A DNA stretch of 48,898 nucleotides, from positions 1 to 48,898 of IMG/VR virus record IMGVR_UViG_3300031622_000002; one strand, written 5' to 3'. Below, piece by piece: positions 17,857 to 48,898 of the stretch (within the stretch, counting starts at the first letter, position 1; every line of letters starts with the position of its first letter). The translations under genes were made by a program, and so were the position numbers. Source of the DNA: a virus. The notes beneath the pieces were generated by a model that saw only the letters and a program-made list of their open reading frames with translations, was not told the DNA's origin and did no database searches.

Positions 17857-18079
17857 CGGCAAGGAAGCCAACATCATAGGCTTTAAAGTCTTAATCAACT
17901 GTGAAGGGAATGTCGTGACAGAAATGTCCGGCATACCCCTCAGTGAGTTGTCAAGTGTTTTGAAGGGGGATGAATTGGCTATTATAAGAAACATTGTACA
18001 ACTTACGAAACAAAAACTAGAGCCGATCCATTCTTTTTTAGAAGACGAACTAAACGCTTTAAACCATCAAGTTTTATAA
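17834..18079 (+). CDS. Hypothetical protein (start uncertain: GTG 17834/17843 or ATG 17924)
   Basis: 81-aa ORF overlapping the RNR stop. AGGTGG precedes GTG 17843. Confidence 0.35.
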   Translation: MVLVKSSNGKEANIIGFKVLINCEGNVVTEMSGIPLSELSSVLKGDELAIIRNIVQLTKQKLEPIHSFLEDELNALNHQVL

Positions 18080-18095
18080 TTGAACAGGTACTAAC

Positions 18096-18602
18096 ATGTT
18101 AATAAAATTAAGTAGACAAGATGTACACACTTGCTCAGTAATGGGTGCTGATACTGTTAAGCTTTGTGAAATGCAAGGCTTCAGTCCACGGTTAAATAAC
18201 AAGAATCAATCTAGAGTTGAGGCTAACATTTACGGATTTAAAGCAGAGTTTGCAGTAGCTAGACTGTTTAATCTTGAACTGCCTACAATTAATGTAGTTA
18301 GTGACGGAGGAGTTGATTTGTGGTTTGATAATTATAGCATTGATGTTAAGTTTAATAACTCAGAACACGGTAAACTTATATTTGACAACATAACAAAGTT
18401 TAAATCACAAATAGCTGTACTTGTAGGACGTACTGAAGACCCAAATATTATGCGTGTCAATGGATGGGTAAGTCGAAAAGACTTTGAAACTAAACGCTAT
18501 GAACATGATTTTGGATACGGAGATAGGTTAGTTATGAACCATGATGACTTAGCCCCTATAGAAACTTTGTGGGCTAAGCTTATGGCTATTAAATTTAAAT
18601 AA
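18096..18602 (+). CDS. Hypothetical protein with PD-(D/E)XK-like motif arrangement; last gene of the plus arm
   Basis: 168 aa. GFKAEFAV ... SDGGVDLWF ... SIDVKF gives an E / D / DxK spacing typical of restriction-endonuclease-fold nucleases. Visibly AT-rich. Confidence 0.45.
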   Translation: MLIKLSRQDVHTCSVMGADTVKLCEMQGFSPRLNNKNQSRVEANIYGFKAEFAVARLFNLELPTINVVSDGGVDLWFDNYSIDVKFNNSEHGKLIFDNITKFKSQIAVLVGRTEDPNIMRVNGWVSRKDFETKRYEHDFGYGDRLVMNHDDLAPIETLWAKLMAIKFK

Positions 18603-18632
18603 CTATTACTTAATTTTGTTAGCTTTAGTACT

Positions 18633-18887
18633 CTATTTTTTACTTTTAGCACCTGAACACTTCCAACGCTTGCGAGATAAGTTGTTAGGAGTGTTCGGGT
18701 CATTTTGTTTTTTCTTAGATAAACCCTTCTTGATTCCTAAACTTCTGGCACAGTAGCTGTCACCTTTAGATGTCCCTGCACGTACTCTAGGCCCACCACC
18801 TTTTGCCTTTCCTGCTTGACCATAGCTAACCTTCTTTCCACTAGCTGTAACTTTTACTTTTGCTTTACCTTTTCTGGGAGTAGCCAT
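18633..18887 (-). CDS. Small lysine/arginine-rich protein (84 aa), last gene of the late arm
   Basis: MATPRKGKAKVKVTASGKK...SRKRWKCSGAKSKK. About 30% K+R. Start lies 2 nt after the previous stop. Confidence 0.6.
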   Translation of the reverse strand: MATPRKGKAKVKVTASGKKVSYGQAGKAKGGGPRVRAGTSKGDSYCARSLGIKKGLSKKKQNDPNTPNNLSRKRWKCSGAKSKK

Positions 18888-18889
18888 GT

Positions 18890-19132
18890 TTAGACCCTAT
18901 ATTTTTTAGTTTTCTTTGCAATCTTCTTAGGCTGTGCGCTGTGTTGCTTACCTGCTTTTGTGTCTTTCTTTTTCTTTTTAGTTGTTGCGGCATACTGTGC
19001 AGGTGTCAAAGCGTTTATAGCCGCTTTAGGCAGATAACGCTCACCAGTTTTAGCACTAGGCTTACCTGACTTAGTAGTCCACTTTTGTTTTGTCCAATCC
19101 TTTAAAGACTTTTGAGATTTTGCAAGCGCCAT
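18890..19132 (-). CDS. Small lysine-rich protein (80 aa)
   Basis: MALAKSQKSLKDWTKQKWTTKSGKPSAKTGERYLPKAAINALTPAQY...KKKKKD... About 30% K+R. TAATG coupling to the upstream ORF. Confidence 0.6.
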   Translation of the reverse strand: MALAKSQKSLKDWTKQKWTTKSGKPSAKTGERYLPKAAINALTPAQYAATTKKKKKDTKAGKQHSAQPKKIAKKTKKYRV

Positions 19133-19305
19133 TATTTTTTCTTCCTTGCTTTTTTCTTAGCGGTATCGGACAAGTCCTTTAAATGAAATAGTTTTACACT
19201 CGTCTTAGTGTGGGACTTGTTAGTGTGCAAAGAACCATCAGGCATTTTGTGAGTGCCTCCTGTGTGTAGTGTACCGTCTTTCTTATAATGATTAACGCCT
19301 TTCAT
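19132..19305 (-). CDS. 57-aa His/Lys-rich mini-protein with duplicated H-x3-DG(T/S)LHT motif
   Basis: Manual translation: MKGVNHYKKDGTLHTGGTHKMPDGSLHTNKSHTKTSVKLFHLKDLSDTAKKKARKKK. ATGA overlap upstream and TAATG overlap downstream. Not in the ORF track (<60 aa). Confidence 0.5.
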   Translation of the reverse strand: MKGVNHYKKDGTLHTGGTHKMPDGSLHTNKSHTKTSVKLFHLKDLSDTAKKKARKKK

Positions 19306-19484
19306 TTGTAACCCCCTCCTTTTGCTTTGTATTCTTTAGCAAGCATCTGAGCCTTTCGTGCGCTCCACTGTCCTGCTTTGCCACCCTTAGTGCTTGCTTT
19401 AATTTTATTAAATAGATTCTTACGCATTGTAGGCTTAGTGTAGTTACCTGCTTTATTAACTGTTGACTTCTTCTTTGCGGCCAT
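19302..19484 (-). CDS. Small lysine-rich protein (60 aa) with GQWSARKAQ motif
   Basis: MAAKKKSTVNKAGNYTKPTMRKNLFNKIKASTKGGKAGQWSARKAQMLAKEYKAKGGGYK. 17 of 60 residues are K/R. Its start overlaps the holin stop by 1 nt. Confidence 0.6.
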   Translation of the reverse strand: MAAKKKSTVNKAGNYTKPTMRKNLFNKIKASTKGGKAGQWSARKAQMLAKEYKAKGGGYK

Positions 19485-19861
19485 TACCTGTCCCTCGCTA
19501 CTGATTTTGTTTTTTCTACTGTACGCATTGCTCCAAGACCTAACATTCCCATGAGTACACTTGTAAGAAGTGAGCTATCTACAGGAGGGACAGTAAACCA
19601 TATGCCCAGTATAGGTGCTAAGATTGTAGAGTACATTAAAGCAAATCCGCATATCCACCCAATCGCAGGTCTCCATCCAGAGACAAACAAACTCTTGTGT
19701 GCCGCCTCAACTTTGTTAACAGCTAACTGGCCCTTGGCTAATTCTTGAGCGTGTCGCTCTGCCATAGTACTGATCTCGTGGGCTAAGGCACTAGCTTGGT
19801 CTTTATCAACAATAAATTTGTTCAGTAATCCTGTTACTGGGCCTATTAGTTTATCTAACAT
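19484..19861 (-). CDS. Holin (3-TM holin family, PF11351-like)
   Basis: 125 aa. VNKVEAAHKSLFVSGWRPAIGWICGFALMY followed by further hydrophobic segments, matching my recollection of the 'holin of 3TMs' signature (EA...F..GWRP..GW). Lies in the lysis cluster. Confidence 0.7.
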   Translation of the reverse strand: MLDKLIGPVTGLLNKFIVDKDQASALAHEISTMAERHAQELAKGQLAVNKVEAAHKSLFVSGWRPAIGWICGFALMYSTILAPILGIWFTVPPVDSSLLTSVLMGMLGLGAMRTVEKTKSVARDR

Positions 19862-20106
19862 TATGGATATACCTCTGTAGTTTTAGGGTCTACGTATTTT
19901 GGCTCACAAAAAGCTGTCAGTGGGATTTTAAAAGCTTGGTTCCACTTGCTCGTACCGCTACCGCCACGGATGTTTTGAGTGCTTAGATTCCTAGAGAAAT
20001 AGATACACTGATGCATGTCAGCCCACGGCCCATACTGCTCTCTGGATTCTTCATAGCCTTCCGAATCCGTTAGAATTACAACGAGATAAAATACAAGCTG
20101 TTTCAT
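19861..20106 (-). CDS. Small protein with N-terminal hydrophobic leader, 2 Cys
   Basis: 81 aa. MKQLVFYLVVILTDSEG... with no lipobox Cys. ATGA overlap with the upstream ORF. Confidence 0.5.
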   Translation of the reverse strand: MKQLVFYLVVILTDSEGYEESREQYGPWADMHQCIYFSRNLSTQNIRGGSGTSKWNQAFKIPLTAFCEPKYVDPKTTEVYP

Positions 20107-20294
20107 TTTAGAACCTTCGCGTTGTTTTCAACCCACACTAGCTTGCAGATACACTGCGTAGGTTGATAGTTACGCTGTGCTTTAGAAAGCTGTTGGCACA
20201 TGTATCTACAGGCTTGAAGGTTTTTGTAGTACACAGTTTTACTTTCATCGACACTGCCGTTAAGAAAGAACAATAGTGCAAACGCCATCTTCAT
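20103..20294 (-). CDS. Small protein with N-terminal hydrophobic leader, 4 Cys
   Basis: 63 aa. MKMAFALLFFLNGSVDE... with Cys at CRYMC and CIC. No lipobox. Confidence 0.5.
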   Translation of the reverse strand: MKMAFALLFFLNGSVDESKTVYYKNLQACRYMCQQLSKAQRNYQPTQCICKLVWVENNAKVLK

Positions 20295-20295
20295 T

Positions 20296-20595
20296 TTACT
20301 TAGCCAACAACGCTTGGACTAAAGCTTGTATCTGTTCGTTCGTTTGCTCTTGAATTTTTTCCTGCCTAGCTAAAGATTCTACAATAGCTTCTACTTTAGT
20401 TTCAGTTACGGCTTGGTTCTGTCCGTTCTTCTGAGCGGCCTTAGCAGTTTCTTTAACGATAACTTCTATACGCTTTACGTCTGCTGTCGTAGCTTCTGCG
20501 TTAGCTTGGGCGGCTCCATAGCTTATAGCGCCTACAAAAAGACTAACTACTAGCGGCAACGCCCACGTTGGGATTGAGATTGTATTGTCTGACAT
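20296..20595 (-). CDS. Type II membrane protein with periplasmic coiled coil (i-spanin-like)
   Basis: 99 aa. N-terminal TM WALPLVVSLFVGAISYGAA, then a charged helical region. Directly downstream of the endolysin. Confidence 0.5.
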   Translation of the reverse strand: MSDNTISIPTWALPLVVSLFVGAISYGAAQANAEATTADVKRIEVIVKETAKAAQKNGQNQAVTETKVEAIVESLARQEKIQEQTNEQIQALVQALLAK

Positions 20596-20616
20596 GGATA
20601 TATCTCCTGTTTTAAA

Positions 20617-20967
20617 TTAATAACACCAACACATTGGTTCGGTTTTACGGATGTCTACGTGAACAAAAGACTTAGCTACACCCACTGACATGCCCATAGC
20701 TGACGCATGTTTAACAATTGCTAAACGCTGTGCGCCTCCAGAGACTTTGATGTCTGCGGCAATACCGGATGCATGGGTTCCTGCAATTTTTTTTGCTTTC
20801 TCTATGCTGTGGTTAGGGCTTCTGTAGCCACTTGTAATGTTAAACGGAAACCCACAGGCCGCTCTGAGTTGATCTAAAGCATGTATAAAATCAGCGTCCA
20901 TCTCGTTCTCGCCAGTTTCTTGGCAATCAAAGTCTGATAGGCTAAAGTATTTAAAATCATCTTTCAT
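20617..20967 (-). CDS. Endolysin, zinc peptidase M15 family
   Basis: 116 aa. SGYRSPNHS...GTHASGIAADI and FVHVD form the H/D/H zinc-ligand pattern of M15 peptidoglycan peptidases. Confidence 0.85.
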   Translation of the reverse strand: MKDDFKYFSLSDFDCQETGENEMDADFIHALDQLRAACGFPFNITSGYRSPNHSIEKAKKIAGTHASGIAADIKVSGGAQRLAIVKHASAMGMSVGVAKSFVHVDIRKTEPMCWCY

Positions 20968-23900
20968 TTATTTACAGTTCCTTCTTAGTTGGTTTAATAC
21001 TTTACCACCTGCGGCCATGTTCATTCTACGCATAGGATCGTCTTGATCCATGTACGCTGTCCCCGCACCCTCATTGTATGGCAACCCTGTGAGCTTGTTT
21101 ATACGCTCGTCAGGCTCAGAAGGTGCATTAGGTACAGGTGTGGATACTACGCCTCCTGTTGCTTTACCTAGCCTTTCGTATATATCGTCTTGATCATCAA
21201 AAGGGTCTTCAGTTTCTTCACCATATAACGACAGCCCTTTAAACTCTTTAAACACTGCCTCATATTCACGAGTAACTTTTTTAAGATGTTGGTAAGTAGA
21301 CTCATCCTTTTCTTTAGAAGCCTCTAAAACTTTTAAAATTCTTCCTTCCGCTTCTGGAGGCGCTGTAGGTTTAAATCTGCCCCTATATATATCTTGAATT
21401 GCAGGGCCGGACATTCCACTTTCTCTTAACATTTTTAAAGTTTTAGTACGTCCGTTAATAGAAGCATAAGCGCCTACTTTTCTAAACAGGTCTTGTTGAT
21501 ACTCATAGTTTTTACTTTGACGAGCTACATAATTGTCTAGCATTGACACAGCACTGTCTTTTCCAACTTTATAAATAGACTTTACATTAGCTCTTGTTAA
21601 TTTATTATAGTCAGAAACTGCAAACTTAATAGCTGAATCAGGGTCATGCTGAGTAATCCTAACTCCAGTTATGTTTGTTATAAACGCATTTTTATTTACT
21701 GGCCCTAGTTTTTCTAGCTCTTCTCCTGTGTAGGCATCTACATTATCCAAAAGTTTACGCAAACTTGTAACCGATCCAAGCTCAACTGAGTCATACAGCT
21801 GTTCTACAACAGCCATTAATTTTTTAGATGTATCCATGCTAGGCGGCAACAATATTTTTCCTTCGCTTGTTCTGCCTTCAGGCGAACGCATAGCCGCTAA
21901 TACATCTAGAGTCGCTTTAGTTGCAATAGACTCTGAAATAAAAGGAGTGGTAAGCGTTAGCATTGCGTCTGCTCCTGCTTTAAACATATACTCATCTAGC
22001 TGTTCACCTTTTAACTCGCCGTCTATAATTCTATCTAGTACAGCCAACACTGGTTCTTTAATAGTATTATATGAGTCTAAATACTTAGTAGATACCTTTG
22101 TAATTTCTCCGTTCTCTTTTCTATTCCAGATAAAGTTACTGTTTTTTTCGTACTTACCTTCAGCTAATTTTGTGTGATGATCTCTTTCTTCTGCTGACCA
22201 ACCCATTAAATCTGCTGACAGCTTAGATGCTTGACTTACGCCTACAGAAGCCGCTGTAAAACCCGAAAGTCTTCTAAGTCCTCTGTTCCTTAAAACAGCG
22301 TTTCCAGAATTTATTTCTTTACCCGCTTGTTTAACAATATGAAAACTTGTTCTTATTATTTCAGCAGGAAAGGAAATAAAATTACCTACAGGAAGGTAGT
22401 TTAATTTTTTTAACCCTTTAGTAACACGATCATAATTTGGAATAGTGTTTTGAATAATATCTGCGGCTTCTTTTTCTAAAACATCTATAGAGGCGTTAGG
22501 TCGTGCGTTCTTCAAAGTTTCTAGTTCATCTATAAAACCTGACATTTTAAAATAGTCATCAGTTGCCATGTAAGAATTTTCCATAAACTTCAAAACAGGA
22601 TTTTTCTCCATTAGTTTTTTGATGCTAGTAGTGCCGTAATCGCTACTAGATATTTTTATAAGCTCTCTAAATTGATTAACTTTTAAGTTAGTGTTAATAA
22701 CACCCAAGTCTACATACTTAGTATATATTTTATCTAACTCTTTATCGCCTTTGCCCTGCATGTTATTCCACAAAACTTTCATGTGGCCTCTGTTTTTAGA
22801 AAAAGGATTTAAAGCCGCAAGGTTTCCGTTAGCTATTGAAAACTGTGCGCCTCCTATTATGTTTCGCAGTCCTGTAACGTGGCTATATACAGTCTTAGAT
22901 GCCTGAGAGAATCCTTTATATTTTAAAAATACTTTGTAAGCTTCAGCGGCATTGTTATCATTTTGCAAAAATCCTAAAGTTTCTTCTTGTCTGTTTAAAA
23001 ACTTAGCTACTTCAGCCGTAGTAAACTTGCCGTCTAGAATAGAGTTAGTACCTACAATTTTAGTATCTAATCTTTTACTACGCACACCTTCACTTTTAGC
23101 ACCTTGTATATAACGTCCAGACTTTCCAAGTTGATTAGCTATTTGATAAAAGTTATTAACTTCGTGAATACGAGCGGCTTTAGTGACACTCAAAATAATA
23201 TTATCAGCAGGGTCTTTAATTTCACCTAAAAGTTTTCTAATGCTTTCTGGCATATCTTCAGTTTTTTTGTGAAACTTTCCAACCCGTCTAACTTGTGTAA
23301 GGTGATCAACAGTTTCTTTATCAGTAACTTTCTTTAAAATATCGTCTATGTCTTTTGTTGCAAGCCTCTCTGCTAACTCTGTAATTTTATCTTCGCTAAG
23401 GTTTTTACTCGTGCTACGCGCCCTGACCTCTGTTACTTTAGAGGGAAGAAGATCGTCAATAGCGTCTTGCTTTAAAACATTATCAAGTTTCCAGTTGTCT
23501 GGATCATCAAAAGCTCTATAAGACCTTCTTAAATATGTACCCATATTATTTTTAATAGCCTCTACAGTTTCTGTTTGAAACCCCTTTGTCCCTGCTATTT
23601 GCTTAGATAGTTTATCTATTAAAAAACGAGCATCTAAAATAGCGTCTGCTGTATCTACACTGATCCCTTTGTCTGTGCTTAATTTAAGTGCTTGTTTATC
23701 TAAATCAAGTTTCGTGTATTTAGATAAATCCATACCTAAGATGTCTTGCGCTTTTTCCATGTTAGCTTCTTTAGTAACCTTATCTGCAAAACTTTCAAAA
23801 GAATTATTTAAACGCCTAGCTATTTGTCCGGCTTCAACAAGAGTAGCTCGTTGTTGTGCTTGACTTTGATTAAAAAAAGCAAACATTTTAGGAGGCGCAT

Positions 23901-28917: not shown

Positions 28918-31900
28918 TTAAATTCCACCCGTAATTCCACCATATGTTTTAAGTAATGCTAAAAGAGAACCTGTACTAGTTTCTGCATCTTTAGCCGCCC
29001 CTGACTCATTTCCAATAGCTGTTGCAAGTAGCTGAGCTTCTCGTTGTTCGTTGTTTTCATAAGATTGTCTTATGTACGCGGCTTCATCTCTTAATGTTTG
29101 CCACATTTGAGTTTGATCTAGTGCAGAAATGTTATACGCGTTTTGAACATTCATTTGATTAGCCGCATTAGCGGCGGCAGTGTTTGCAGTATTAGCTTGT
29201 CTACGCCACTGAATGTTAGACTGTTCAACAGCCTGTGCGTTTGATGCATTCCATTGATCACGTTGATTATCAATAGAAGCATTAAACTTGCTTATATCAA
29301 CTTCAAGCTGTGCTGTAAGGCTATCAGCTTGCAACGTATTTCCTGCTTCAATAGCCGCTGTACGATTAGCTTCAGTGACGTTAAAAGACTCCATAGCGTT
29401 TCGCGCACTGGTATTAAACTGCTTCATGTTGTTAGACTGACTAATCATAAACTGGTCTATTTGGTTTTGCGAAGTAGCGCCAAATTGTAACGCGGCATTT
29501 TTAGCGGCTTGGTCAGACAACAAAGTCTGTTGAGCCATTTGTTGATCCATAACAATACCTTGTTGCTCGTTGTTAAGGTTAGCCATGTCCATAGTTAAGA
29601 AGTTTTTAGCGTTTTCTACGGATACTCTTGTACGTGCATCAGCGTTAGCAAGATCAACCTGTGTTAGCATTGTAGCGTTCTGTATTGCTGTTTGCTGATC
29701 GGCACTGAACTTTGTAGCCGTCATAGTCTGCATAAACTTACTGTTAGCCAGTGCCATTTGTTGCTCACCGCTAAACTCGCTCATATCAAAGTTAGCGTTT
29801 ATTTGAGCGTTAAACATTGCCGCGCTTTGTTCGTTGCTAAGATTTGCAAGTCCCATTTGCTGTGCAAGCTGTGCGTTGACCTGTCCTGCCGCCATTTTCT
29901 TTTCGTAGACTTGAAGCTCTGCAATGTTCTCAGCAGACATAGAAGCCATGTCAGCTTGACTCCGTGAGCTAAGGTTAGCTAGGCTTATCTTCTCTTCCAT
30001 AGAAAGATTAGCCATGTCAGCATTCTGTTCAAGCTGTTCGTTTTGCGACATGACCTGAACATAAGTATTAAGCTCTTGTAATCGTCCTCTGTTTCCTTCA
30101 GTAAAGTTTGCATTATCTGCGGCGGCTCTTTCAGACAACTCAGCCAACTCCATCTGCTGTTCGTTACCTAAGTTTGCAAGCTCCATTTGCTGTGCAAAAC
30201 CCGCATTAGTTTTCTTAAAGTCTACAAGAGTATTAAGATTAGCAAGACGCATTTGTTGGTCAGCAGACATGTTAGCTCTTTCTGTTGTGTTCTTTTCAGA
30301 AAGTTCTGACAACTCTACTTTAAGTCTTGCATCTAAATTTACTTCTTCCATGCGCGAGTTAAGCTCAGTCTGGCGTATAGAGCGTTGAACTTTAGCGTTG
30401 TATGTAGTTAACTTAGACTGCTGTTCGTTAGTTAATGATTCAGAATCAGCACGGTTTAAAGACTCTAAGTTTGCAAGCTCTGTTTGCTGATCAGTACTAA
30501 AGGTTTGAGAGATTGCTTGCTGACGCATCTCAGCATTCTTTACGCCTGTAGTTAGCTTAGCGTTTAAGTTAGCAAGCTCTACTTGTTGTCGAGCATTTAA
30601 GTTCTCTGAAGACGCTTGGTTTTGAGCCGTAAGATTAGCAAGCTGTAAACGCTCCTCTGAACTCATGTTAGCTAACTCAGTCTGCTGACGGAACCCAGTG
30701 TTCTGCGCCATGTGCTGTGCGGCAGTCTGTAGCTGTGTAAGTTTAAAACGATTAGCTTCTGTAAAGTTAGCACTGTCAGTAGCAGATTTGTCAGCTAATA
30801 TTGCCATTTCCATTTGCTGTGCATTGCCCATACTAGCTAAGTCCATTTGCTGAGCTAGTTGAGCGTTTGTAGTTTTAAAGGTTACTAAAGTTTCTAAGTT
30901 TTTTAAACGCATTTGTTGATCTGCGCTCATGTTTGCACGAGAGGTGTTGTTCTTTTCAGACAGTTCAGATAGTTCTATTTTTAAACTGCTATCTAAGTTA
31001 GCAACTTCCATTTGCTGATCTAGTTCTGCTTGACGACTAGCTCGCGTAACAACATTATTAAGTCTTGTTAACTCAAATTGATTCTCTGCTGTAAAGTTTG
31101 CTGTGTCTGTAGCGGCTCTTTCAGATAAGTTAGCAAGTTCCATTTGTTGCTCATTGGACATATTAGCTAAGTCCATTTGCTGAGCAAACTGTGCGTCAGT
31201 TTTACGGAAGTCTATAAGAGTTTGTATGTTTGTCATACGCTTTTGATTTTCTGCGGTCATTGTATCTTTAGAGGCCGCATTCATTTCAGACACACGTTGC
31301 ATTTCAACCTGTAAAGACTGTGAAATATTAGCTTTTTCCATGTCCTGATTAAGTTCTGCCTGACGCATGGTTTTATTTATTTGAGCATTATACGTTTGTA
31401 ATCTTGCTTGTTGATCAGCAGTCATGTTTTGAGACTCTGCTTGATTTAAAGCTTGCAAGTTTGCTAAGTCCATTTGAGCATTTGTGCTTAACTGAGCTAT
31501 AGCGGCTTGTTGAGTCTGTGCGGATGTTTGTTGCGCTCGTTGCTGAGCCATTTGTGCATTAGTTAATTCTGTCTGCTGACGTTGCTCTGCTGAAGTCATA
31601 ACAGCTTGTTGATTAAATGTACCTTGTTGTACTTGAATCTGCTGAGCCATTTGAGCAGTCTGTGACGAGGCAGTCTGACGGTTAGCAAGATTCTGCATCC
31701 GTATCTGCATAACACCTTGAGCAGTCGAAAGATTAGCTTGCTGTTGATTAGACAAGTTTTGCTGTGCGCGTTGCTGTAAAGCTTGAGCATTGCTCTGAGC
31801 CATTGGCAAAGCACTTTGGATAATAGCATTAAACAAAGCATCACGGCCTACAGTAGAAACACTTAAACCTCTAGCGGCCATTTGTTGGTTCATTGCATCT

Positions 31901-33996
31901 ATAGCGGGCTTAGCCCACAATGGAGTTTTACCATCTTCCATACCTGCAAGTAAACCTTCCATCTGTGTGGAGACAAGTGCTTCAACAGGCAAAGCCGCAA
32001 TAGCCGCAATAGTCTGTGGGTCAGCATCTTCGTCTTTTTCTACACGAACTGTTGCAGGGTCTTCAGCAATAGCGGCTGTTATTTCTGGCTGTACGTTTGC
32101 AACAACCGCGTTCATATCTGCGGCGGCTACGGTTCTGTCCTTGCCTGTAACAGCTTGCATAGTTGCGGCGGCCATTGTAGGAACACCACCAATTTGTGCG
32201 GCATCTCCTTGAGGCGCGTCACCTGTAATAGCTTCACGGCCTACTAAATCTACAGATTCTGCATCGCCTAGTTCAGTAGCAATGCGCTGTGCGGCTTCTC
32301 CTACTTGTGCGGTTCTTGTAGCGGCTACTTCATAAGCGGGTATGGCATCTATGTCTGTATTGCCGCCTTCGGGTGTAAAGTCTGCGGCATAGTATTCTGC
32401 TTGTGCAGGTTTTTTATCTTCAGGAATAATCATTGGCTCATATTGTCGTTCAACGGCCACGCCTGTTTGATTTTCGCGCGATAGTTCCAATGTAAAATCT
32501 TGTAACTCGCCTGTTTGTTCAGCCGTAGCTTCAGCAGATTGATCTTCTGTAACTGCATCTCTACGGTCTTTTTGTGCTTGTACGTCACCCACAGTTGCAG
32601 AAGCCATGTCGCCTTGATCAGCGGCTTGACGGCCTTCACGATCTGCAAAACCTGCTTCGCCTACGTCAGCTATTTGTTCTTTCTGTCCTGCGGCAACATT
32701 AGCGGCTTCTAAGAAATCTGCGGAGGCAGTAGTTCCTTCAGAAGAACTCATAGAAACGGCATCGCCTTCTGCGGCTGTGCCTGTTTGGGCTTCTCTAAAC
32801 TCTCTAGAGTTTCTGTAGTCTATTAAAGCTTGATCAGGATCAACGCCACGTTTTTCAGCATCTAATTTAATTTCATCAATTTTAGATTGTGGTATTACTA
32901 CGCCTGTACGTGTGTCTACATCAGGGCCTTCAACTACAGAAGCAATCTCAGCAACGCCATCTGTAGCGGCTGTAGCATATTTTTTATCAATTAAATCGGG
33001 GTCGCGCTGTGCCGCAGTTCCTCTTGCTTCTGTTTCTTTAGCATCATCGCGTTTAGTTGGATCAGCTTTAGAAGCTTCGGCTCCCCCATCGGTTCCACCT
33101 GCTTTAGCTTGAGTAACTTGTTTATCAAATTTAGCGGCTTTAGTAGTGCCTACACTTCCGGCTGTTTCAGCATCGTAAGTTTCTCTTTTTTTAGTGTCAG
33201 GATTTTCTACTTGTCTACGCGCACCAGTTTCTTTGTTATAAACAAATATATTTCCTTCGCTAGGCATGTCTTGAGGGTAGCCTTTGTTTTTTGCAGGAGT
33301 CCTAGAAAACCCTTCTGGTACTCCTGATTCAGCGGCTTGGCTTGCAGAACCTTGTTCGACTGTCAGGGCTTCCGCAGTCACAGTACTTGATGTAGCGTCT
33401 GTAGCGTCGGTAAGCTGTTGAACAGCAGAACGGTCAGTAATGCCTTCTTGTGAATCAATACTTACAGAGTCTGCTTGACGAATGTTAGCTTGTGGGCCTG
33501 TAACTTTTATATCTGTAGGAGCAGTAGCAAAAGACGCACTGCCGCCACCCGTAGTTGCGCTAAAACCATTAGCCGCGTTCCATCGACCTAGCTCTCTTGT
33601 TTCTGCGTCTGTTGGAAAAGCCGGATTTGCAGGAATAGGACGCGGAGTACCATATAAAGGACTATCTGGATTTCCCTCTCCTTGAACCTCGCTAGTCGCT
33701 GTTGTTGGGCCTGTTCTAGTTACACTTCCACTGCTCATAGGGTTTTGTTGCGCTAAGGATGAAGCGGTTGGTTGTGTTATGTTAGGAGCTACGAAAACAT
33801 CTGAAACATCGGGCTTAACTACATTTGAACTGTTACCCGCCGCACCTTTAGGTGGATTGCCGCTGTCATCATAAGGAGCAGGAGACTTTGGCATAGGCTT
33901 AGGTATAAAAGCAGGGCTACCACCCCTAGCGTATTTTTTACGTTTCAGAGACTTCAAAGTCTTGTTAGCGTTTTTCTTGTTTTCTTTTTTACTCAT
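28918..33996 (-). CDS. Giant repeat-rich virion protein, 1692 aa (Q/N/A-rich coiled-coil)
   Basis: Basic N-terminus (MSKKENKKNANKTLKSLKRKKYARGG), a P/T/G/A-rich region, then about 900 aa of Q/N/A/L/M repeats built around (M/L)(E/D)LANL..EQQ. Confidence 0.8.
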   Translation of the reverse strand: MSKKENKKNANKTLKSLKRKKYARGGSPAFIPKPMPKSPAPYDDSGNPPKGAAGNSSNVVKPDVSDVFVAPNITQPTASSLAQQNPMSSGSVTRTGPTTATSEVQGEGNPDSPLYGTPRPIPANPAFPTDAETRELGRWNAANGFSATTGGGSASFATAPTDIKVTGPQANIRQADSVSIDSQEGITDRSAVQQLTDATDATSSTVTAEALTVEQGSASQAAESGVPEGFSRTPAKNKGYPQDMPSEGNIFVYNKETGARRQVENPDTKKRETYDAETAGSVGTTKAAKFDKQVTQAKAGGTDGGAEASKADPTKRDDAKETEARGTAAQRDPDLIDKKYATAATDGVAEIASVVEGPDVDTRTGVVIPQSKIDEIKLDAEKRGVDPDQALIDYRNSREFREAQTGTAAEGDAVSMSSSEGTTASADFLEAANVAAGQKEQIADVGEAGFADREGRQAADQGDMASATVGDVQAQKDRRDAVTEDQSAEATAEQTGELQDFTLELSRENQTGVAVERQYEPMIIPEDKKPAQAEYYAADFTPEGGNTDIDAIPAYEVAATRTAQVGEAAQRIATELGDAESVDLVGREAITGDAPQGDAAQIGGVPTMAAATMQAVTGKDRTVAAADMNAVVANVQPEITAAIAEDPATVRVEKDEDADPQTIAAIAALPVEALVSTQMEGLLAGMEDGKTPLWAKPAIDAMNQQMAARGLSVSTVGRDALFNAIIQSALPMAQSNAQALQQRAQQNLSNQQQANLSTAQGVMQIRMQNLANRQTASSQTAQMAQQIQVQQGTFNQQAVMTSAEQRQQTELTNAQMAQQRAQQTSAQTQQAAIAQLSTNAQMDLANLQALNQAESQNMTADQQARLQTYNAQINKTMRQAELNQDMEKANISQSLQVEMQRVSEMNAASKDTMTAENQKRMTNIQTLIDFRKTDAQFAQQMDLANMSNEQQMELANLSERAATDTANFTAENQFELTRLNNVVTRASRQAELDQQMEVANLDSSLKIELSELSEKNNTSRANMSADQQMRLKNLETLVTFKTTNAQLAQQMDLASMGNAQQMEMAILADKSATDSANFTEANRFKLTQLQTAAQHMAQNTGFRQQTELANMSSEERLQLANLTAQNQASSENLNARQQVELANLNAKLTTGVKNAEMRQQAISQTFSTDQQTELANLESLNRADSESLTNEQQSKLTTYNAKVQRSIRQTELNSRMEEVNLDARLKVELSELSEKNTTERANMSADQQMRLANLNTLVDFKKTNAGFAQQMELANLGNEQQMELAELSERAAADNANFTEGNRGRLQELNTYVQVMSQNEQLEQNADMANLSMEEKISLANLSSRSQADMASMSAENIAELQVYEKKMAAGQVNAQLAQQMGLANLSNEQSAAMFNAQINANFDMSEFSGEQQMALANSKFMQTMTATKFSADQQTAIQNATMLTQVDLANADARTRVSVENAKNFLTMDMANLNNEQQGIVMDQQMAQQTLLSDQAAKNAALQFGATSQNQIDQFMISQSNNMKQFNTSARNAMESFNVTEANRTAAIEAGNTLQADSLTAQLEVDISKFNASIDNQRDQWNASNAQAVEQSNIQWRRQANTANTAAANAANQMNVQNAYNISALDQTQMWQTLRDEAAYIRQSYENNEQREAQLLATAIGNESGAAKDAETSTGSLLALLKTYGGITGGI
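30050..31370 (-). repeat. Three copies of a ~330-bp (~110-aa) intragenic repeat
   Basis: Units start RQAELNQDMEKANIS (~31370), RQAELDQQMEVANLD (~31040) and RQTELNSRMEEVNLD (~30380). DNA similarity is visible, e.g. 30251..30350 versus 30911..31010 versus 31235..31340. Confidence 0.8.
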
Positions 33997-34911: not shown

Positions 34912-37900
34912 TTATCCTTCTAGGGTTTCTATTCGTGCGGTTAATGCTTCAATCAAGGCTTGTTGCTCTTGTATAGCTTTGACTAGGATTGGTACGAACT
35001 TGCTGTACTGTAGACCCATCTGCTTGCCGTCTTCTGTGTGGCTAGAGACTAGGTTGGTTTTGTTGTCTTTGTCGTATCCTGCCGCTATTTCTAGGGCTTC
35101 TACTTCTTGGGCTTTAAAGCCTATGTCCAACCAATCTTCTTTGTGAGTACCATCTGGAGTCTGTGCGTTAAGGTCATAGTCTTCAGCGTACTTGTCGCCA
35201 TAATTGGCTCTTTTATCCCACTTGTAGGTAACAGGTGCTAGGGCTTTTACAAAGTCTAAGCCTAAGTCTAAAGCGGTAAAGTCTGCCTTATCTCGCGCAT
35301 CAGACGCTACTGACCAATCTACTTGGATGTTTGCATGGGTAATGTTTCCATCGCCAAGAACTATCCTATTGTCTGCGGTTACATGGTTACCGCCAGGACT
35401 TCCTGTGCGTCCTGAATCTTTACCTAAAAATAAATTATTACCGCCGCTTGTTAATGCTAAACCTGCGGCATTGCCCATAAGAGTGTTATTTTGACCTGTA
35501 ACAAGAACTCCCGCACTTGACCCTACTGCGGTATTAGAAGAGCCACAGTTAGCTGATAATGCTGAGTACCCAACAGCTACGCATCCTGCACCATCATCAG
35601 TTGCATCACCTGCAAGAGCGCCCACGAATGTGTTAGCTGTGCCTGTGGTTATTGAGTATCCTGCATCGTGACCTACTGCGGTGTTGTACATATCTGTAGC
35701 TGAAGAAGGGTTTTGTGATGCTAAAGCCTCCATACCAACTGCTACTGACTTGCTACCTATTGTATTTGAACCTAGCGAACCAAAACCTACAGCTACGTTA
35801 GCGTCTGCATCAGTAATGGCATCTCCTGCGTTACCACCGATGAGGGTGTTTTGAACGCCTGTTGTAACTGCGGTTCCTGCATTTGACCCTACTGCGGTAT
35901 TGTAAATATTGCCAGACGAATTAACCTGAGCCTTTAAAGCGCGTGTTCCAATTGCTACGTTATTTTGACCGCCTGTTTCAGTGCTTAATGCTTCAAAACC
36001 TACTGCAACATTGTCTGCCGCGGCTTGAAGAGCATCTCCTGCTAATCCACCTATGAGGGTGTTTTGGATGCCTGTGGATACTGAGCCACCTGCAAACATA
36101 CCAACAGCGGTATTATAGGCATCTGTAGCAGATGTAAAGTTTTGAGCAACTAAGGCTTGATAGCCAATAGCTACGCTTCTACTACCTAGAGTATCACCGC
36201 CTAAAGCACCAGAACCAACAGCTACATTGTAATCAGCATCTGTTAGCGCATCACCCGCAAGACTACCAATAAGGGTGTTGTTAACGCCTGTGGTTACTGC
36301 TTTTCCTGCGGAATGACCAAGAGCAGTATTATATCCATTTGCACCTGAACCTAAAGTATGTGTGGCAAGTGCGTCTGTTCCTACTGCTGTATTTTTATCT
36401 GAAACTGTATTTGTTGCGAGTGACCCATGACCAACTGCTACGTTTTGTCCTCCGATTGTTATAGCACCTGCGGCATTATATCCTACTGCTACGTTGTTAT
36501 TGGCTCCTTGCATTGCATCACCTGCTAAACCGCCAATGAGGGTGTTTTGTACGCCTGTGGTTACTGCGTATCCTGCAAAATGACCCACCGCAGTGTTGTA
36601 CATAGTAACGGCTGATGCAGGGTTTTGTGTTCGTAACGCAGATGCTCCAACAGCAACTGACGCGCCTCCTAGAATGTTTGTCCCTAAAGAGTCATAACCA
36701 ATAGCAACATTTTCATCAGCGTCAGTAGTAGCATCACCTGCAAGACCACCAAGGAAAGTATTTTTAACGCCTGTGGTTACTGCGGCTCCTGCTGACATTC
36801 CCACCGCAACATTGTATGCGTCCGTAGAAGATGTAAAGTTTTGCGCTAATAACGCATTCATTCCTACAGCTACCGACCTATTTCCTTTAGTCTCTGCACT
36901 TAAAGCGTTTGCACCAACAACAGTATTATAATCTGCTGTATTTATAGCGTCACCTGCTCCATAGCCTACAAACGTAGAGTAATCACCCGTAGTAATCGCA
37001 GTACCTGCTTCATCGCCTACGACAACATTATAATTACCACCGCTTGTAATGCTGTTACCTGCGTTGACACCAAATCGGACGTTAGAGGTTCCTGCGGTTG
37101 GGGTGGATAGAGAGCCGTCTCCTGCTATTTGAAAACGAGGAGAGTTGTTAGTAGAAAAAATCATTGACCCATTAAAATGATTGTTTAGATGAGCAGTATC
37201 AGAAGAACTGTCGTTATATATGTTAAAACCATTAGAAGATGATTCTTGACTTTTTAATCTTATGCCTGAAGTTGTTGTTCCAATAACGTCTAAAGCTACG
37301 TCAGGTGAGCCAGTTCCTATTCCTACAGCATTATTTTCACCATCAACAAACAGCATATTGGCGTTGCCGTCTGACTCAACGCGGAAGTCTAGGTCTTTGG
37401 AGTTGTCATTAATAACAGTTTCAGTAGCGTTCATTAATATGCGAGATATGCCTTCTTCAGTAGCAAGACTCGTCATTAACTCAAGCCTACCGTCTTCTGT
37501 TGCATTACTTGCATCTACGATTCTAGCTTCTATCTTGGCGTAACCATGTGCTTCTGCCGCATCATTTTTACCATTAAAAGAAATTGTACCTATTGAATCT
37601 CCATCAGCAGGGTTTGCTGATTGCCTATCTAGTACAAGCAAAGGCCCTGCATTTGCATCTGCATCTGTAGAAATAAGGGTTAGCTGTGGGAGGTTGTCGG
37701 CTGTGGTAAATGTTGCAGATGTTGCCGCTATTGTAGAACTAAACGTAGCCGCACCTGCCGCTGTAATTGTAAGTCTGTCGTTATTGCCGCCTGTACCAAT
37801 TACAAAATCATCACTTGTACCTGTGTGCATGACAAACTGGTTAGCTGTGTCGTTTCTAAATGTAATTGAGCCAGAGTTAGCACCGCCAAACCTAATAATA

Positions 37901-44844: not shown

Positions 44845-46260
44845 TTATCCCTTGTTAGTGCTTGGCATTCTATCTGCGTTTACCATCCTTGATCGAACAA
44901 GAGAAGCTTCTTCTTCTTCTTCAATTTCGGGTGCGTCATCGCTAGTTAGTCCTCCAAACGCTTTCTTCATTAAACCACCGTCATAGGCTTTTTCAGCTTC
45001 GTCCATCATAGTTTGTAGCTGATCAGCGCCCATTTGATCGGTAGCCTTCTTGGTGAAAACAAATTCACCATCCGATAACCTTGCGGGAATCGAATCTGAT
45101 ACTCCAGTGCCAAGGCCAGATACTTCGCCTTCACCGGAAAACTCTCCTGCAACATCCATAACCTTATCAAAGATGCCGCTTAGACGTTCGTCAGTTTCTA
45201 GAACGCCCATTAAATATTCTTGTTCTTCCATGTCTAAAGACTCTTCTAGTACATAACTAGTATAGTCCTCTTCCATCTCATCGTCTGGAAGCTGTGAAGC
45301 TTCTGCCGCTTCTTTCTCATCTTCAGGGATGTTGTCGTATGTGTCCACTGGCATCTCGTCTTCCATTTCCATTTCAGGTGGAACGAGCATAGAGCCTCCT
45401 TCAGCCTTTTTAGTTTTTGTATATGTTACATCAGAGTTATTCTCAGCGGCTAAAGCAACTTTAACAGGGTATGTTTTTCCCTCGTCATCTGTAAACTCAA
45501 AAACATCTAAGCCTTCTTTTTGTGCAGACGCAAATTCTTTTTGAAATCTATTTTGCGTGGGCTTAGTAAGCTTATCGTAAGCTTCCTTCCCGCCAAACGC
45601 AGTTATGGCCCCTGCTATCCCTGCTTTCATTTGTCCTTTTTTATAGGTTTTAGTAGCTTTCATAGGTGCTGAAGTCATAGCTATGCTTTCAGTATCACCA
45701 CGTAAAAGACTTGTAAACATTGAATCTATATCACGAGGGCCGCCACCGCCAACACCATAATTTTCCACGTATCTTAAATCTTTTACTTCTTGTATATCGT
45801 CAGCTATTTCTTTTTCAAGGTTGGGATTTTCTTTTTTAACATCGTCTACAGCTTTTTGTATTTTAGCCCTAGTTGGTTTTTTACCAGACTTGGTTGTTTT
45901 ACCAAGAGCTTTTGCAACTAAAGAAAATACTCTACCACCTACACTATACTCTTCACGCTCAGGAGAACTTAACATAGAGCCGCCAGACATTTTTCCTTGT
46001 CTTTGATTTTCTTTAAATCTTTTGTCAGCTTCATCTAAATCACGATCCATTTTGTCTTGATCTAACTTTCGCTGATGGTCTTCGGCTTCTTCATCTGACA
46101 TAAACATATCAGGATCAAGTTCTTCTTCAAGCTCATCAACTGTCGTATTTTTAGCTTTAACTAGCTTACCGTCAGAATACTTCGCTCTGCCGCCATACAT
46201 CTTGCCTTGTCTTTCTTCCATTTGCATTCTGTAGCGTTTGTCATCCATAGATTCTTTCAT
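44845..46260 (-). CDS. Acidic 471-aa protein between portal and scaffold, function unknown
   Basis: GAGGA RBS. Recurring GKMYGG / GKMSGG / AEGGSM / AFGG motifs. IPARLSDGEFVFTKKAT motif near the C-terminus. Confidence 0.7.
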   Translation of the reverse strand: MKESMDDKRYRMQMEERQGKMYGGRAKYSDGKLVKAKNTTVDELEEELDPDMFMSDEEAEDHQRKLDQDKMDRDLDEADKRFKENQRQGKMSGGSMLSSPEREEYSVGGRVFSLVAKALGKTTKSGKKPTRAKIQKAVDDVKKENPNLEKEIADDIQEVKDLRYVENYGVGGGGPRDIDSMFTSLLRGDTESIAMTSAPMKATKTYKKGQMKAGIAGAITAFGGKEAYDKLTKPTQNRFQKEFASAQKEGLDVFEFTDDEGKTYPVKVALAAENNSDVTYTKTKKAEGGSMLVPPEMEMEDEMPVDTYDNIPEDEKEAAEASQLPDDEMEEDYTSYVLEESLDMEEQEYLMGVLETDERLSGIFDKVMDVAGEFSGEGEVSGLGTGVSDSIPARLSDGEFVFTKKATDQMGADQLQTMMDEAEKAYDGGLMKKAFGGLTSDDAPEIEEEEEASLVRSRMVNADRMPSTNKG

Positions 46261-48556: not shown

Positions 48557-48898
48557 TTATAGAGCTTGGAACTGAACGATGTACTTAACAGTTGTAGCCG
48601 CTGTAGCTAGGTCTGCTCCGATTGGAGTTAGTCGAGCGTGTAGAGTACGGTCAGCGGCACTGTATAAAGTGCTTGCAATTACAATAGCCTCTGAAGTAGC
48701 GGGGCCGCCTACAACACCTGCGGTTACTGAAGTGCTTACAAAAGCGTTAGCTCCGTGGCCGTGAGAATCTTTAATAAGATACAAAGGAGCTTTAGCCGCC
48801 CAAGTTACAGCAGAACCACCGTCATCTAGGATAGCTTCAGTAGCGATAATCTGTCCACCACCTGCGGCTGTTCCTAAACTAAAGTCTACGTCATTACC
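48557..48898 (-). CDS. 3' part of the wrap-around 191-aa protein (48772..48898 duplicates 1..127)
   Basis: The frame is open to the window end. ...AKAPLYLIKDSHGHGANAFVSTSVTAGVVGGPATSEAIVIASTLYSAADRTLHARLTPIGADLATAATTVKYIVQFQAL, with the stop at 48557. Confidence 0.7.
   Translation of the reverse strand, partial: GNDVDFSLGTAAGGGQIIATEAILDDGGSAVTWAAKAPLYLIKDSHGHGANAFVSTSVTAGVVGGPATSEAIVIASTLYSAADRTLHARLTPIGADLATAATTVKYIVQFQAL
48772..48898. repeat. Exact duplicate of 1..127
   Basis: See the first feature. Confidence 0.95.

Follow-up and report, generated by a model that had tools for sequence, protein, structure and literature searches.

Basic proteins that condense DNA in the virion include adenovirus VII and mu, the internal proteins of T4, and the protamine-like proteins of baculoviruses and ascoviruses (in part from PMC6163548). 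The four proteins considered here, designated A60, B57, C80, and D84, share with them a small size, a strongly basic composition, late production, and genes located next to those for the head and packaging. However, the virion DNA-condensing proteins are Arg-rich, low-complexity polycations, whereas the four proteins are Lys-rich, conserved folded modules that have cellular homologues. Other small, basic proteins encoded by phages are the ribosome-binding ArfA and bS21. Some metagenomic proteins combine an ArfA module with an A60-type domain, but the four proteins had no Pfam match to ArfA (PF03889), and the KGKGSY.RK motif was absent from a six-frame scan of the window. They also lack similarity to ribosomal proteins, as no ribosomal protein family or structure was detected in Pfam, NCBIfam, and PDB sequence searches or by Foldseek. 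Annotations of DUF5872 (PF19197) include one in a giant virus of algae (PMC12085832), and an Azospirillum homologue is named “DUF5872 domain-containing protein” at NCBI. In PHROGs, the phage relatives of A60 and C80 make up two families that are not connected with each other and have no assigned function, phrog_17747 (full-length match to A60, E 1e-36) and phrog_14910 (full-length match to C80, E 1e-37), and the link between them is new here. Searches of the literature on HMO-2011-type phages, DUF5872 and DUF6321, and small basic virion proteins yielded no functional data, including data on presence in virions or on DNA binding or compaction, and no paper discussing these proteins.

Organization of the Gene Cassette

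The window, i.e., the whole stretch of 48,898 nucleotides that was analyzed, represents a complete 48.8-kb HMO-2011-type marine podovirus. The original prediction had measured it against a T7-like gene set, to which the cassette would be foreign; this framing does not apply, as these genes belong to the standard set of HMO-2011-type phages. The late operon closes with four minus-strand ORFs of 60, 57, 80, and 84 aa after the holin gene, which itself follows an M15 endolysin gene (Table 1). The junctions are TAATG between the holin gene and A60, ATGA between A60 and B57, TAATG between B57 and C80, and TAA-ac-ATG between C80 and D84, and they are compatible with translational coupling. A Shine-Dalgarno-like site for B57 was read as aggagggggttacaaATG, with a spacing of 9 nt from AGGAGG to ATG. 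No promoter- or terminator-like sites were seen inside the cassette. Only 30 bp separate the end of D84 from a plus-strand gene that converges on it, so that the late operon terminates with the cassette.

Table 1. Positions of the cassette genes and related features in the window.
Feature	Position	Strand	Description
471-aa gene	44845..46260	-	Directly downstream of the portal gene; homologue in locus L036 carries an N-terminal C80 fusion
Holin	19484..19861	-	PF11351 GTA_holin_3TM, E 3e-15; phrog_3427, E 2e-33; stop codon overlaps the A60 start
A60	19302..19484	-	60 aa; counterpart of the DUF5872 N-terminal half; phrog_17747
Shine-Dalgarno-like AGGAGGG for B57	19314..19320	-	Lies in the Gly codons of the conserved C-terminal GGGY motif of A60
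B57	19132..19305	-	57 aa, His-rich; optional insert between the DUF5872 halves
C80	18890..19132	-	80 aa; counterpart of the DUF5872 C-terminal half; phrog_14910
D84	18633..18887	-	84 aa; C-terminal SYCARS...RKRWKC module, DUF6321-related

Lys and Arg together make up 28.3% of A60, 26.3% of B57, 30.0% of C80, and 29.8% of D84, with one, four, three, and two acidic residues (Asp or Glu), respectively, and the isoelectric points range from 10.3 to 11.1. The four coupled, tiny, basic ORFs following the holin were thus as originally described (26-30% Lys and Arg), and the motifs quoted from them were all present verbatim. The extreme basic composition agrees with that of protamine-like proteins; on the other hand, the proteins are not low-complexity polycations devoid of conserved non-basic positions.

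The cassette consists of genuine, conserved genes in a late position. Each of the four ORFs had many homologues, and comparison with relatives gave pN/pS values of 0.13 (A60), 0.21 (B57), 0.33 (C80), and 0.16 (D84), with pS saturated at 0.72-0.77. The combination of saturated pS and low pN/pS rules out spurious ORFs or a chance run, and the saturation of synonymous sites likewise rules out an embedded RNA element, as well as recent horizontal spread as the cause of high identity.

Relationship of A60 and C80 to DUF5872

The interpretation that A60 and C80 would represent one ancestral DUF5872 gene divided into two adjacent genes is well supported by pairwise alignments. A60 matched residues 27-83 of a Terriglobus DUF5872 protein (P0444) with 61% identity over 57 aa (E 1e-21), and C80 matched residues 88-135 of the same protein with 44% identity over 48 aa (E 2e-10). 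P0444 is a single chain of 168 aa whose halves are matched by A60 and C80 in order, and in alignment A2, C80 begins just beyond the end of A60, after a short linker. The motifs GQWSARKAQ...GGGY and W..E.W...G...RYLP are common to the phage halves and the bacterial proteins; in contrast, the domain of the window is divided over two genes with B57 at the break, rather than carried on one polypeptide, and the phage halves bear Lys-rich tails.

Neither A60 nor C80 alone matched the PF19197 model in Pfam at E<=1, and an artificial concatenation of the two gave no match to it at E<=10. Membership in DUF5872 therefore rests on pairwise and transitive homology, namely the ordered similarity of A60 and C80 to both halves of P0444, on close relatives of which PF19197 is precomputed. 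Two natural fusions of A60 and C80 were also found. The first (P0288, whose A60 domain is 76% identical) scored 29.3 bits on DUF5872, above the cut-off of 27.5, and the second (P0341) scored 24.3 bits against the same cut-off; both are singletons on short contigs, rare forms recovered by a search with representatives. Bacteria and the cyanophages S-CRES1 and S-EIVl have unsplit forms, and A60 and C80 were separate ORFs in all 84 viral loci examined.

Cys-containing proteins related to either half were also identified. CRP-7 gp63 matched the C-terminal half of DUF5872 and CRP-902 gp70 matched the N-terminal half, and CRP-7 gp64 resembles CRP-902 gp70 by eye. This implies a second, putative split pair with two Cys per half (CRP-7 gp64/gp63). 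A60 showed no direct BLAST similarity to CRP-902 gp70, and the two are linked by the Pfam profile alone (19.3 bits).

Searches of Pfam, NCBIfam, and PDB sequences with the four cassette proteins returned nothing useful, a profile search of the PDB was empty, and a search of BFVD returned uncharacterized homologues only. Matches to avidin, designed proteins, and MBF1 were rejected as compositional or repeat noise. An AlphaFold model of the Terriglobus protein, built with an alignment, had a moderate mean pLDDT of 66, with values of 80-92 in the A60 core, and Foldseek found no fold match for it in the PDB (best E-value 6). The model of the natural fusion P0341, predicted without an alignment, was poor (pLDDT 56).

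D84 and B57

D84 is, on well-supported sequence grounds, a divergent relative of DUF6321 (PF19846). Residues 44-77 were 53% identical over 34 aa (BLASTP, E 1e-8) to a protein whose Pfam score of 51.7 bits marks it as a genuine DUF6321 member. The C-terminal module of DUF6321, [SF/SY]CAR...(K/R)xWxC, was present in D84 with both Cys aligned, and genes of both kinds lie beside DUF5872 genes; in contrast, the N-terminal half of D84 (KVKVTASGKKVSYGQAGKAKGG) is unlike that of DUF6321. A profile of the D84 family aligned the module in other DUF6321 proteins weakly (4-8 bits), and neither D84 nor its homologues CRP-7 gp65 and that of a Vibrio phage matched the DUF6321 Pfam model. Weak PHROG matches were to the C-termini of phrog_11180, 4689, 10346, and 727. 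D84 homologues formed about 1900 metagenomic clusters and occurred in CRP-7, CRP-212, Vibrio podoviruses, and S-TIM5-like cyanomyoviruses; the D84-like gp065 of S-TIM5 is without a virion-protein label, which three of its neighbors carry. DUF6321 is fused to A60-type domains in two proteins (P0329 and P0381), is encoded close to the pair in HTVC033P and CRP-7, and adjoins DUF5872 in three of the 25 bacterial loci surveyed, in which no other conserved partner was found.

B57 contains six His and a DG[TS]LHT repeat. It had no match in Pfam or NCBIfam and no significant match in PHROGs, and it was 53% identical (E 6e-14) to CRP-902 gp69, whose gene adjoins the DUF5872-N-like gene. B57 occurred in 13 of the 84 viral loci, several of which (e.g., L007, L011, and L020) have it between A60 and C80, and is an optional His-rich insert at the DUF5872 split point.

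Distribution and Conservation

A60 homologues formed at least 8000 metagenomic clusters at 90% identity and 1055 at 50% identity. The same cultured phages carry A60 and C80, and these phages infect SAR11, SAR116, OM43, and pelagic Roseobacter. C80 lay downstream of A60 in each of the 84 viral loci, always in this order and on one strand, and 77 of the 80 loci from the genome collection had A60 with a C80 homologue, split, fused, or permuted. The expected co-occurrence of the four genes thus held for this pair, but B57 and D84 (the latter in 11 of the 84 viral loci) do not form a fixed cassette with it. In the viral loci the pair was always located in late modules on the strand of the structural genes, either between TerS and TerL (13 loci), upstream of the terminase genes (14), between the portal and capsid genes (7), or at the operon end (12). 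Linkage to the lysis cassette was not constant, as the pair adjoined lysis genes in only about 11 of the 84 loci.

The A60 domain was usually C-terminal, behind variable N-terminal extensions and connected via hydrophobic-x-x-G-G linkers, and was also found inside a 1022-aa ParB/Srx phage protein. C80 was fused to a homologue of the 471-aa post-portal protein of the window (L036_5761_7125, 454 aa) and, in the same portal-capsid slot, to an acidic protein (L066_8847_10094, 415 aa). Such fusions weigh little, because adjacent tiny phage genes can fuse by accident.

A60 was more conserved than TerL, the portal protein, and the capsid protein in every locus having them. Its identity was 82-98% where the portal and capsid proteins were only about 22-26% identical, a range that is biased upward because the 80 IMG/VR loci were chosen as the best A60 matches; in the less biased comparison with cultured phages, A60 was 69-77% identical and the DNA polymerase 45-46%. 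Among 150 representatives of the A60 family, Y15, T16, P18, R21, W40, S41, R43, K44, and A49 were nearly invariant.

Unsplit DUF5872 proteins occurred in many bacterial phyla, and their genes are stand-alone and monocistronic, with variable neighbors. The suggested resemblance of the cassette proteins to small uncharacterized proteins of bacteria and large DNA viruses was correct, with A60 and C80 corresponding to DUF5872, which is also annotated in the algal giant virus, and D84 being related to DUF6321. Histone-H1-like AKP tails (PF07382) were present on about 30 of the 120 bacterial homologues listed, and others, including alphaproteobacterial forms, carried Rho_N helix-extended-helix modules. 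By eye, the alphaproteobacterial homologues were not basic but abounded in Asp and Glu, indicating that positive charge is not a family trait. The description “protamine-like” is accordingly misleading for A60 and C80, each of which is one half of a folded domain whose conservation includes invariant residues that are not basic. Single-cell genomes of SAR11 contained a permuted C80-A60 form among cellular genes, with neighbors encoding CMAS, DUF1365, TspO, and short-chain-dehydrogenase domains. SAR11 bacteria, which are hosts of related phages, thus have a chromosomal copy of their own.

Possible Functions

The best explanation as a whole, which is offered tentatively and falls short of probable, is a split DUF5872 pair that would bind nucleic acid late in infection, and the mechanistic part of it is proposed with low confidence. 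All four proteins would be translated late, coupled to the holin, and A60 and C80 would associate to form one DUF5872 unit with Lys-rich tails. The rebuilt unit, perhaps together with D84, would bind nucleic acid, for which phage DNA that is being packaged or has been packaged is the likeliest candidate, and would do so via a specific conserved surface and not by bulk charge in the manner of protamines. The placement in late modules and the fusion of C80 at the post-portal position in two loci point to a late or virion-proximal role, and the H1-like tails, the Rho_N modules, and the A60 domain in the ParB/Srx protein suggest nucleic acid binding. A further reading, which we regard as doubtful, is that an A60/C80 heterodimer copies a small, near-universal bacterial protein (a nucleoid or ribosome binder, of which SAR11 has a copy), and that the most abundant marine podoviruses depend on it late in infection, as a DNA-organizing or virion-core protein of a new kind or as a translation-hijacking factor, with DUF6321 as its partner.

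The main rival explanation is that the basic proteins have ribosomes or rRNA of the host as their target in the late phase and thereby favor or rescue late translation, in the manner of phage-encoded bS21 and ArfA. Four of the 150 A60-family representatives (P0301, P0366, P0265, and P0352; three of them above the Pfam cut-off) carried an ArfA module at the N-terminus, which would indicate ribosomes rather than DNA, although so few fusions may reflect the adjacency of small genes. Phage ArfA is known, gp30 of the pelagiphage HTVC027P being reported to be highly expressed both early and late (PMC12753301), and further examples come from phages of Alphaproteobacteria. The extreme, host-independent conservation of A60 would suit a partner as invariant as the ribosome, and the hosts are streamlined oligotrophs, among which SAR11 retains its copy. 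However, searches of Pfam, NCBIfam, and the PDB gave no similarity to ribosomal proteins or factors, and the accessory modules of the bacterial homologues, H1-like tails and Rho_N helix-extended-helix modules, are more typical of DNA binders. The presence of DUF5872 in a giant virus of eukaryotes (PMC12085832) also counts against a ribosomal role, which is on the whole unlikely.

It is still less likely that the proteins travel in the capsid, are ejected, and target the nucleoid or the defense systems of the host at the onset of the next infection. Their genes are late and lie beside packaging and head genes, the fusion of C80 to the post-portal protein would agree with such a route, and a C-terminal A60 domain behind variable extensions would be a fitting layout for a shared module that targets or anchors. 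Yet the protein is also encoded by an ordinary gene in the chromosomes of bacteria, including the SAR11 hosts, which would be odd for an anti-host weapon, and the conservation is far above that usual for counter-defense proteins.

Rho_N modules are common in small stress proteins, and the bacterial DUF5872 protein might be a general protective protein of this kind, whose hydrophilic phage copies would stabilize macromolecules without a specific target. The monocistronic bacterial genes with variable neighbors, the Rho_N modules of the alphaproteobacterial forms, and the location of the SAR11 copy beside CMAS, DUF1365, TspO, and short-chain-dehydrogenase genes are consistent with this explanation, but the near-invariant residues of A60 argue for a specific partner and make it very improbable. 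A role as cationic lysis peptides directed at the outer membrane once the holin and endolysin have done their part, modeled on that of phage phiKT, is the least credible of all despite the holin-coupled genes of the window downstream of the M15 endolysin and the unsplit S-CRES1 gene two genes after the lysozyme gene, because lysis genes rarely adjoin the pair, the proteins have no hydrophobic face (GRAVY -1.1 to -1.3), and the bacterial homologues are stand-alone chromosomal genes.

The recognition of the two genes as a split DUF5872 links two phage protein families listed as unknown to a family of bacteria and a giant virus, including a copy in the SAR11 hosts. If the A60/C80 pair organizes phage DNA or steers ribosomes, it would explain a part of the core biology of some of the most abundant viruses in the ocean.

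Organization of the Cassette and of the Phage Genome

The four tiny, highly basic ORFs of the original prediction, A60, B57, C80, and D84 (named by length in residues), were all present on the minus strand exactly as it had described them, and the sequence motifs quoted for them were found in the ORFs. Their pI values range from 10.3 to 11.1. They are joined by the junctions holin-TAATG-A60, A60-ATGA-B57, B57-TAATG-C80, and C80-TAAacATG-D84, an AGGAGG sequence for B57 lies within the Gly codons of the A60 GGGY motif, and no promoter- or terminator-like sites were found inside the cassette. The holin gene (PF11351; phrog_3427) is located directly upstream, preceded by an M15 endolysin gene, and a convergent plus-strand gene lies 30 bp from the end of D84. 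This convergent gene, which matched DUF5843 (E 0.003) and phrog_18407 (E 1e-6) weakly, is again found next to the cassette in locus L061. Three further small ORFs between the endolysin and holin genes may be the missing lysis partners; the 99-aa ORF has a hydrophobic N-terminal stretch and weak matches to spanin- and holin-like PHROGs (E about 0.1).

Coordinates of the cassette ORFs and of other features of the window
Feature	Coordinates	Strand	Length	K+R (%)	D+E (residues)
A60	19302-19484	-	60 aa	28.3	1
B57	19132-19305	-	57 aa	26.3	4
C80	18890-19132	-	80 aa	30.0	3
D84	18633-18887	-	84 aa	29.8	2
Convergent gene	18096-18602	+	168 aa		
Three ORFs, endolysin-holin interval	19861-20595	-	99, 63, 81 aa		
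Post-portal gene	44845-46260	-	471 aa		
Giant late ORF	34912-40230	-	1772 aa		
Its repeats, five copies	35735-36816		about 170 nt each		
Its repeats, four copies	38497-39380		167 nt each		
Giant late ORF	28918-33996	-	1692 aa		
Its repeats, seven copies	29830-31199		50-nt unit		
Small terminase gene	2667-2269				
Exact direct repeat	1-127 and 48772-48898		127 nt		

Because its ends carry an exact direct repeat, the window represents a complete genome, about 48.8 kb long, with the repeat reflecting either terminal redundancy or circular assembly. The late operon extends from the genes of the small (TerS) and large (TerL) terminase over the genome ends as far as the portal gene, and from there down to D84. 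No close relative was found in the phage collection; the DNA polymerase shares 45-46% identity with those of pelagiphages HTVC115P, 103P, and 104P, and in the region 18000-21000 only the small cassette genes had DNA-level matches to known phages. Since the largest ORFs on the early strand are 625, 590, and 561 aa, the phage appears to lack a T7-type RNA polymerase and to be HMO-2011-like rather than T7-like. Two giant late ORFs contain internal repeats.

A60 and C80 as a Split DUF5872 Protein

None of the four proteins matched Pfam, NCBIfam, or PDB, and in PHROGs A60 and C80 matched phrog_17747 and phrog_14910, neither of which has an assigned function. Together, the evidence strongly indicates that A60 and C80 are a split DUF5872 (PF19197) pair, with D84 as a DUF6321-related partner and B57 as an optional insert. 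A C80 homolog was located downstream of A60 on the same strand in all 84 A60-containing viral loci, about half of the pairs directly abutting and the rest having other genes, 60-1760 bp in all, between them, and both occurred together in 77 of 80 loci of the genome set. Cultured phages with both include HMO-2011, CRP-1, 9, 13, 345, and 603, HTVC033P, 103P, 104P, 115P, 034P, and 035P, Lederberg, and MEP401 and 402.

When bacterial and archaeal genomes were scanned, the A60 domain turned up across many phyla. Acidobacteriaceae, Chthoniobacterales, Myxococcus, Corallococcus, Fibrella, Actinomycetota, and Acetobacteraceae encode a single protein of 160-205 aa in which the A60 region is directly followed by the C80 region. 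In the Terriglobus protein P0444, residues 27-83 are 61% identical to A60 (E 1e-21) and residues 88-135 are 44% identical to C80 (E 2e-10); GGGYK closes the aligned A60 part, and C80 starts just past a short linker. PF19197 is precomputed on close relatives of P0444, and the Azospirillum homolog is named a DUF5872 protein by NCBI. The DUF5872 model did not match A60 and C80 of the window, singly or artificially joined. Rare natural A60-C80 fusions, both singletons on short contigs, did match it (P0288, 29.3 bits against a cut-off of 27.5; P0341, 24.3 bits), and cyanophages S-CRES1 and S-EIVl have unsplit forms.

The A60/C80 type is absent from CRP-7, which carries gp65 (D84 family), gp64, and gp63 immediately upstream of its terminase gene. 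Its gp63 matched the C-terminal half of DUF5872 (27.3 bits), CRP-902 gp70 matched the N-terminal half (19.3 bits), and CRP-7 gp64 resembles gp70 by eye. With two Cys in each half, the gp64/gp63 type appears to be another split pair, of a Cys-containing kind, and we infer that the halves assemble. The late regions of HTVC033P (L004, gp36-gp42), CRP-7 (L085, gp63-gp66), and CRP-902 (L087, gp67-gp70) hold entire rows of tiny and very basic genes, five to eight in number, among them DUF6321, two subtypes of split DUF5872, a GLYANIHAKRKR-type protein, and an "HVA1 family" protein; all are annotated as hypothetical or by a bare family name.

D84 and B57

D84 shares 53% identity over its last 34 residues (E 1e-8) with a clear DUF6321 (PF19846) member, whereas its N-terminal half differs from that of the family; D84 itself scores under the Pfam threshold. 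DUF6321 precedes the A60-type domain in the fusion proteins P0329 and P0381, lies directly upstream of a DUF5872 gene in 3 of 25 bacterial loci, and is encoded near the A60/C80 pair by HTVC033P gp36. D84 has homologs in CRP-7, CRP-212, Vibrio podoviruses, and S-TIM5-like cyanomyoviruses. The His-rich B57 was found in 13 of the 84 loci, in several of them between A60 and C80, and its only cultured relative, CRP-902 gp69 (53% identity), adjoins the DUF5872-N-like gp70. In HMO-2011 (L002), a methanesulfonate monooxygenase auxiliary gene is located between gp63, which is of the A60 type and has an additional module at its N-terminus, and the C80-type gp59; the split point therefore appears to be a place where extra genes land.

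Conservation and Genome Slots of the Pair

Compared with relatives, the cassette ORFs had pS values of 0.72-0.77, that is, saturated synonymous differences, and pN/pS ratios of 0.13 (A60), 0.21 (B57), 0.33 (C80), and 0.16 (D84). The similarity is therefore old and at the protein level, which rules out recent transfer or an RNA element as its source. A reading as spurious ORFs was also rejected. Metagenomes contained at least 8000 A60 clusters at 90% identity (1055 at 50%) and about 1900 D84 clusters. Across 80 IMG/VR loci, A60 was 82-98% identical (median 89.5%), and TerL (median 63.5%), the portal protein (median 56.6%), and the capsid protein (median 74.3%) were lower without exception; these figures are biased upward because the loci were picked as best A60 matches. 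In L010, L014, L016, and L022, among others, portal and capsid proteins were 22-28% identical versus 92-98% for A60, and cultured phages showed the same direction.

The position of the pair varies, and its strand is always that of the structural genes: it lies between TerS and TerL in 13 loci, ahead of the terminase genes in 14, in the portal-capsid gap in 7, and, as in the window, at the end of the operon, where it faces the RNR gene, in 12. In two loci the product of the gene directly after the portal gene has the C80 domain fused to it, a clue toward the capsid interior: in L036 (5761-7125) it forms the N-terminus of a homolog of the window's post-portal gene product, and in L066 (8847-10094) it is joined to an acidic protein. 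The C-terminal motif of the window's post-portal protein is shared with annotated tape-measure proteins.

Possible Functions

Literature searches found no functional statement on the cassette genes, and a paper on HMO-2011-type phages says no more than that several core genes have no known function (PMC9038755). Our first-ranked guess is that A60 and C80, made late, would form a complex that binds phage DNA. Histone-H1-like tails (PF07382) occur in about 30 of the 120 bacterial homologs listed, Rho_N helix-extended-helix modules at the C-terminal end of the Phaeobacter and Azospirillum homologs, and an A60 domain inside a 1022-aa ParB/Srx phage protein; this domain context points to nucleic acid, probably DNA. 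A caution is that alphaproteobacterial homologs are visibly rich in Asp/Glu. In the AlphaFold model of P0444, the helical A60 core is confident (pLDDT 80-92); the overall score is only moderate, and the model matched nothing in PDB.

A ribosome-directed role is our second guess. Four of 150 A60-family representatives (P0301, P0366, P0265, and P0352) carry an N-terminal ArfA ribosome-rescue module, above the Pfam cut-off in three, which is a clue toward ribosomes. As a general caution, tiny adjacent phage genes can fuse by accident. ArfA is documented in phage HTVC027P (PMC12753301), and ArfA-like genes were observed in this pelagiphage and in Caulobacter, Brevundimonas, Citromicrobium, and Sinorhizobium phages. 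The A60 domain mostly stands C-terminal behind variable N-terminal modules (representatives P0241-P0388), including DUF6321, DUF6496, a B57-like HxMPDG motif, an HMMYxGK...GYxH motif, and a KASKSHAKQAK motif; the junction, nearly always hydrophobic-x-x-G-G-(1-4 residues)-S[TR]VN, may be a simple linker or may be processed. Packaged, early-acting factors rank third. As a further caution, the D84-like S-TIM5 gp065 carries no virion-protein annotation, which three of its neighbors have. A lysis-peptide reading was rejected.

A cellular form of the protein was found in single-cell genomes of Pelagibacteraceae (SAR11), as a protein of 138-155 aa in which the C80 part precedes the A60 part, a circular permutation (L119, L125, L136, L140-L142, L144, L147, L153, L160, and L165). 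The chromosomal context was ordinary in the four loci scanned (L125, L140, L147, and L160), and the surrounding cellular genes encode domains such as short-chain dehydrogenase, FAD oxidoreductase, CMAS, DUF1365, TspO, and TsaD. Because this permuted protein lies among ordinary cellular genes, SAR11, the hosts of related phages, have a DUF5872 copy of their own.
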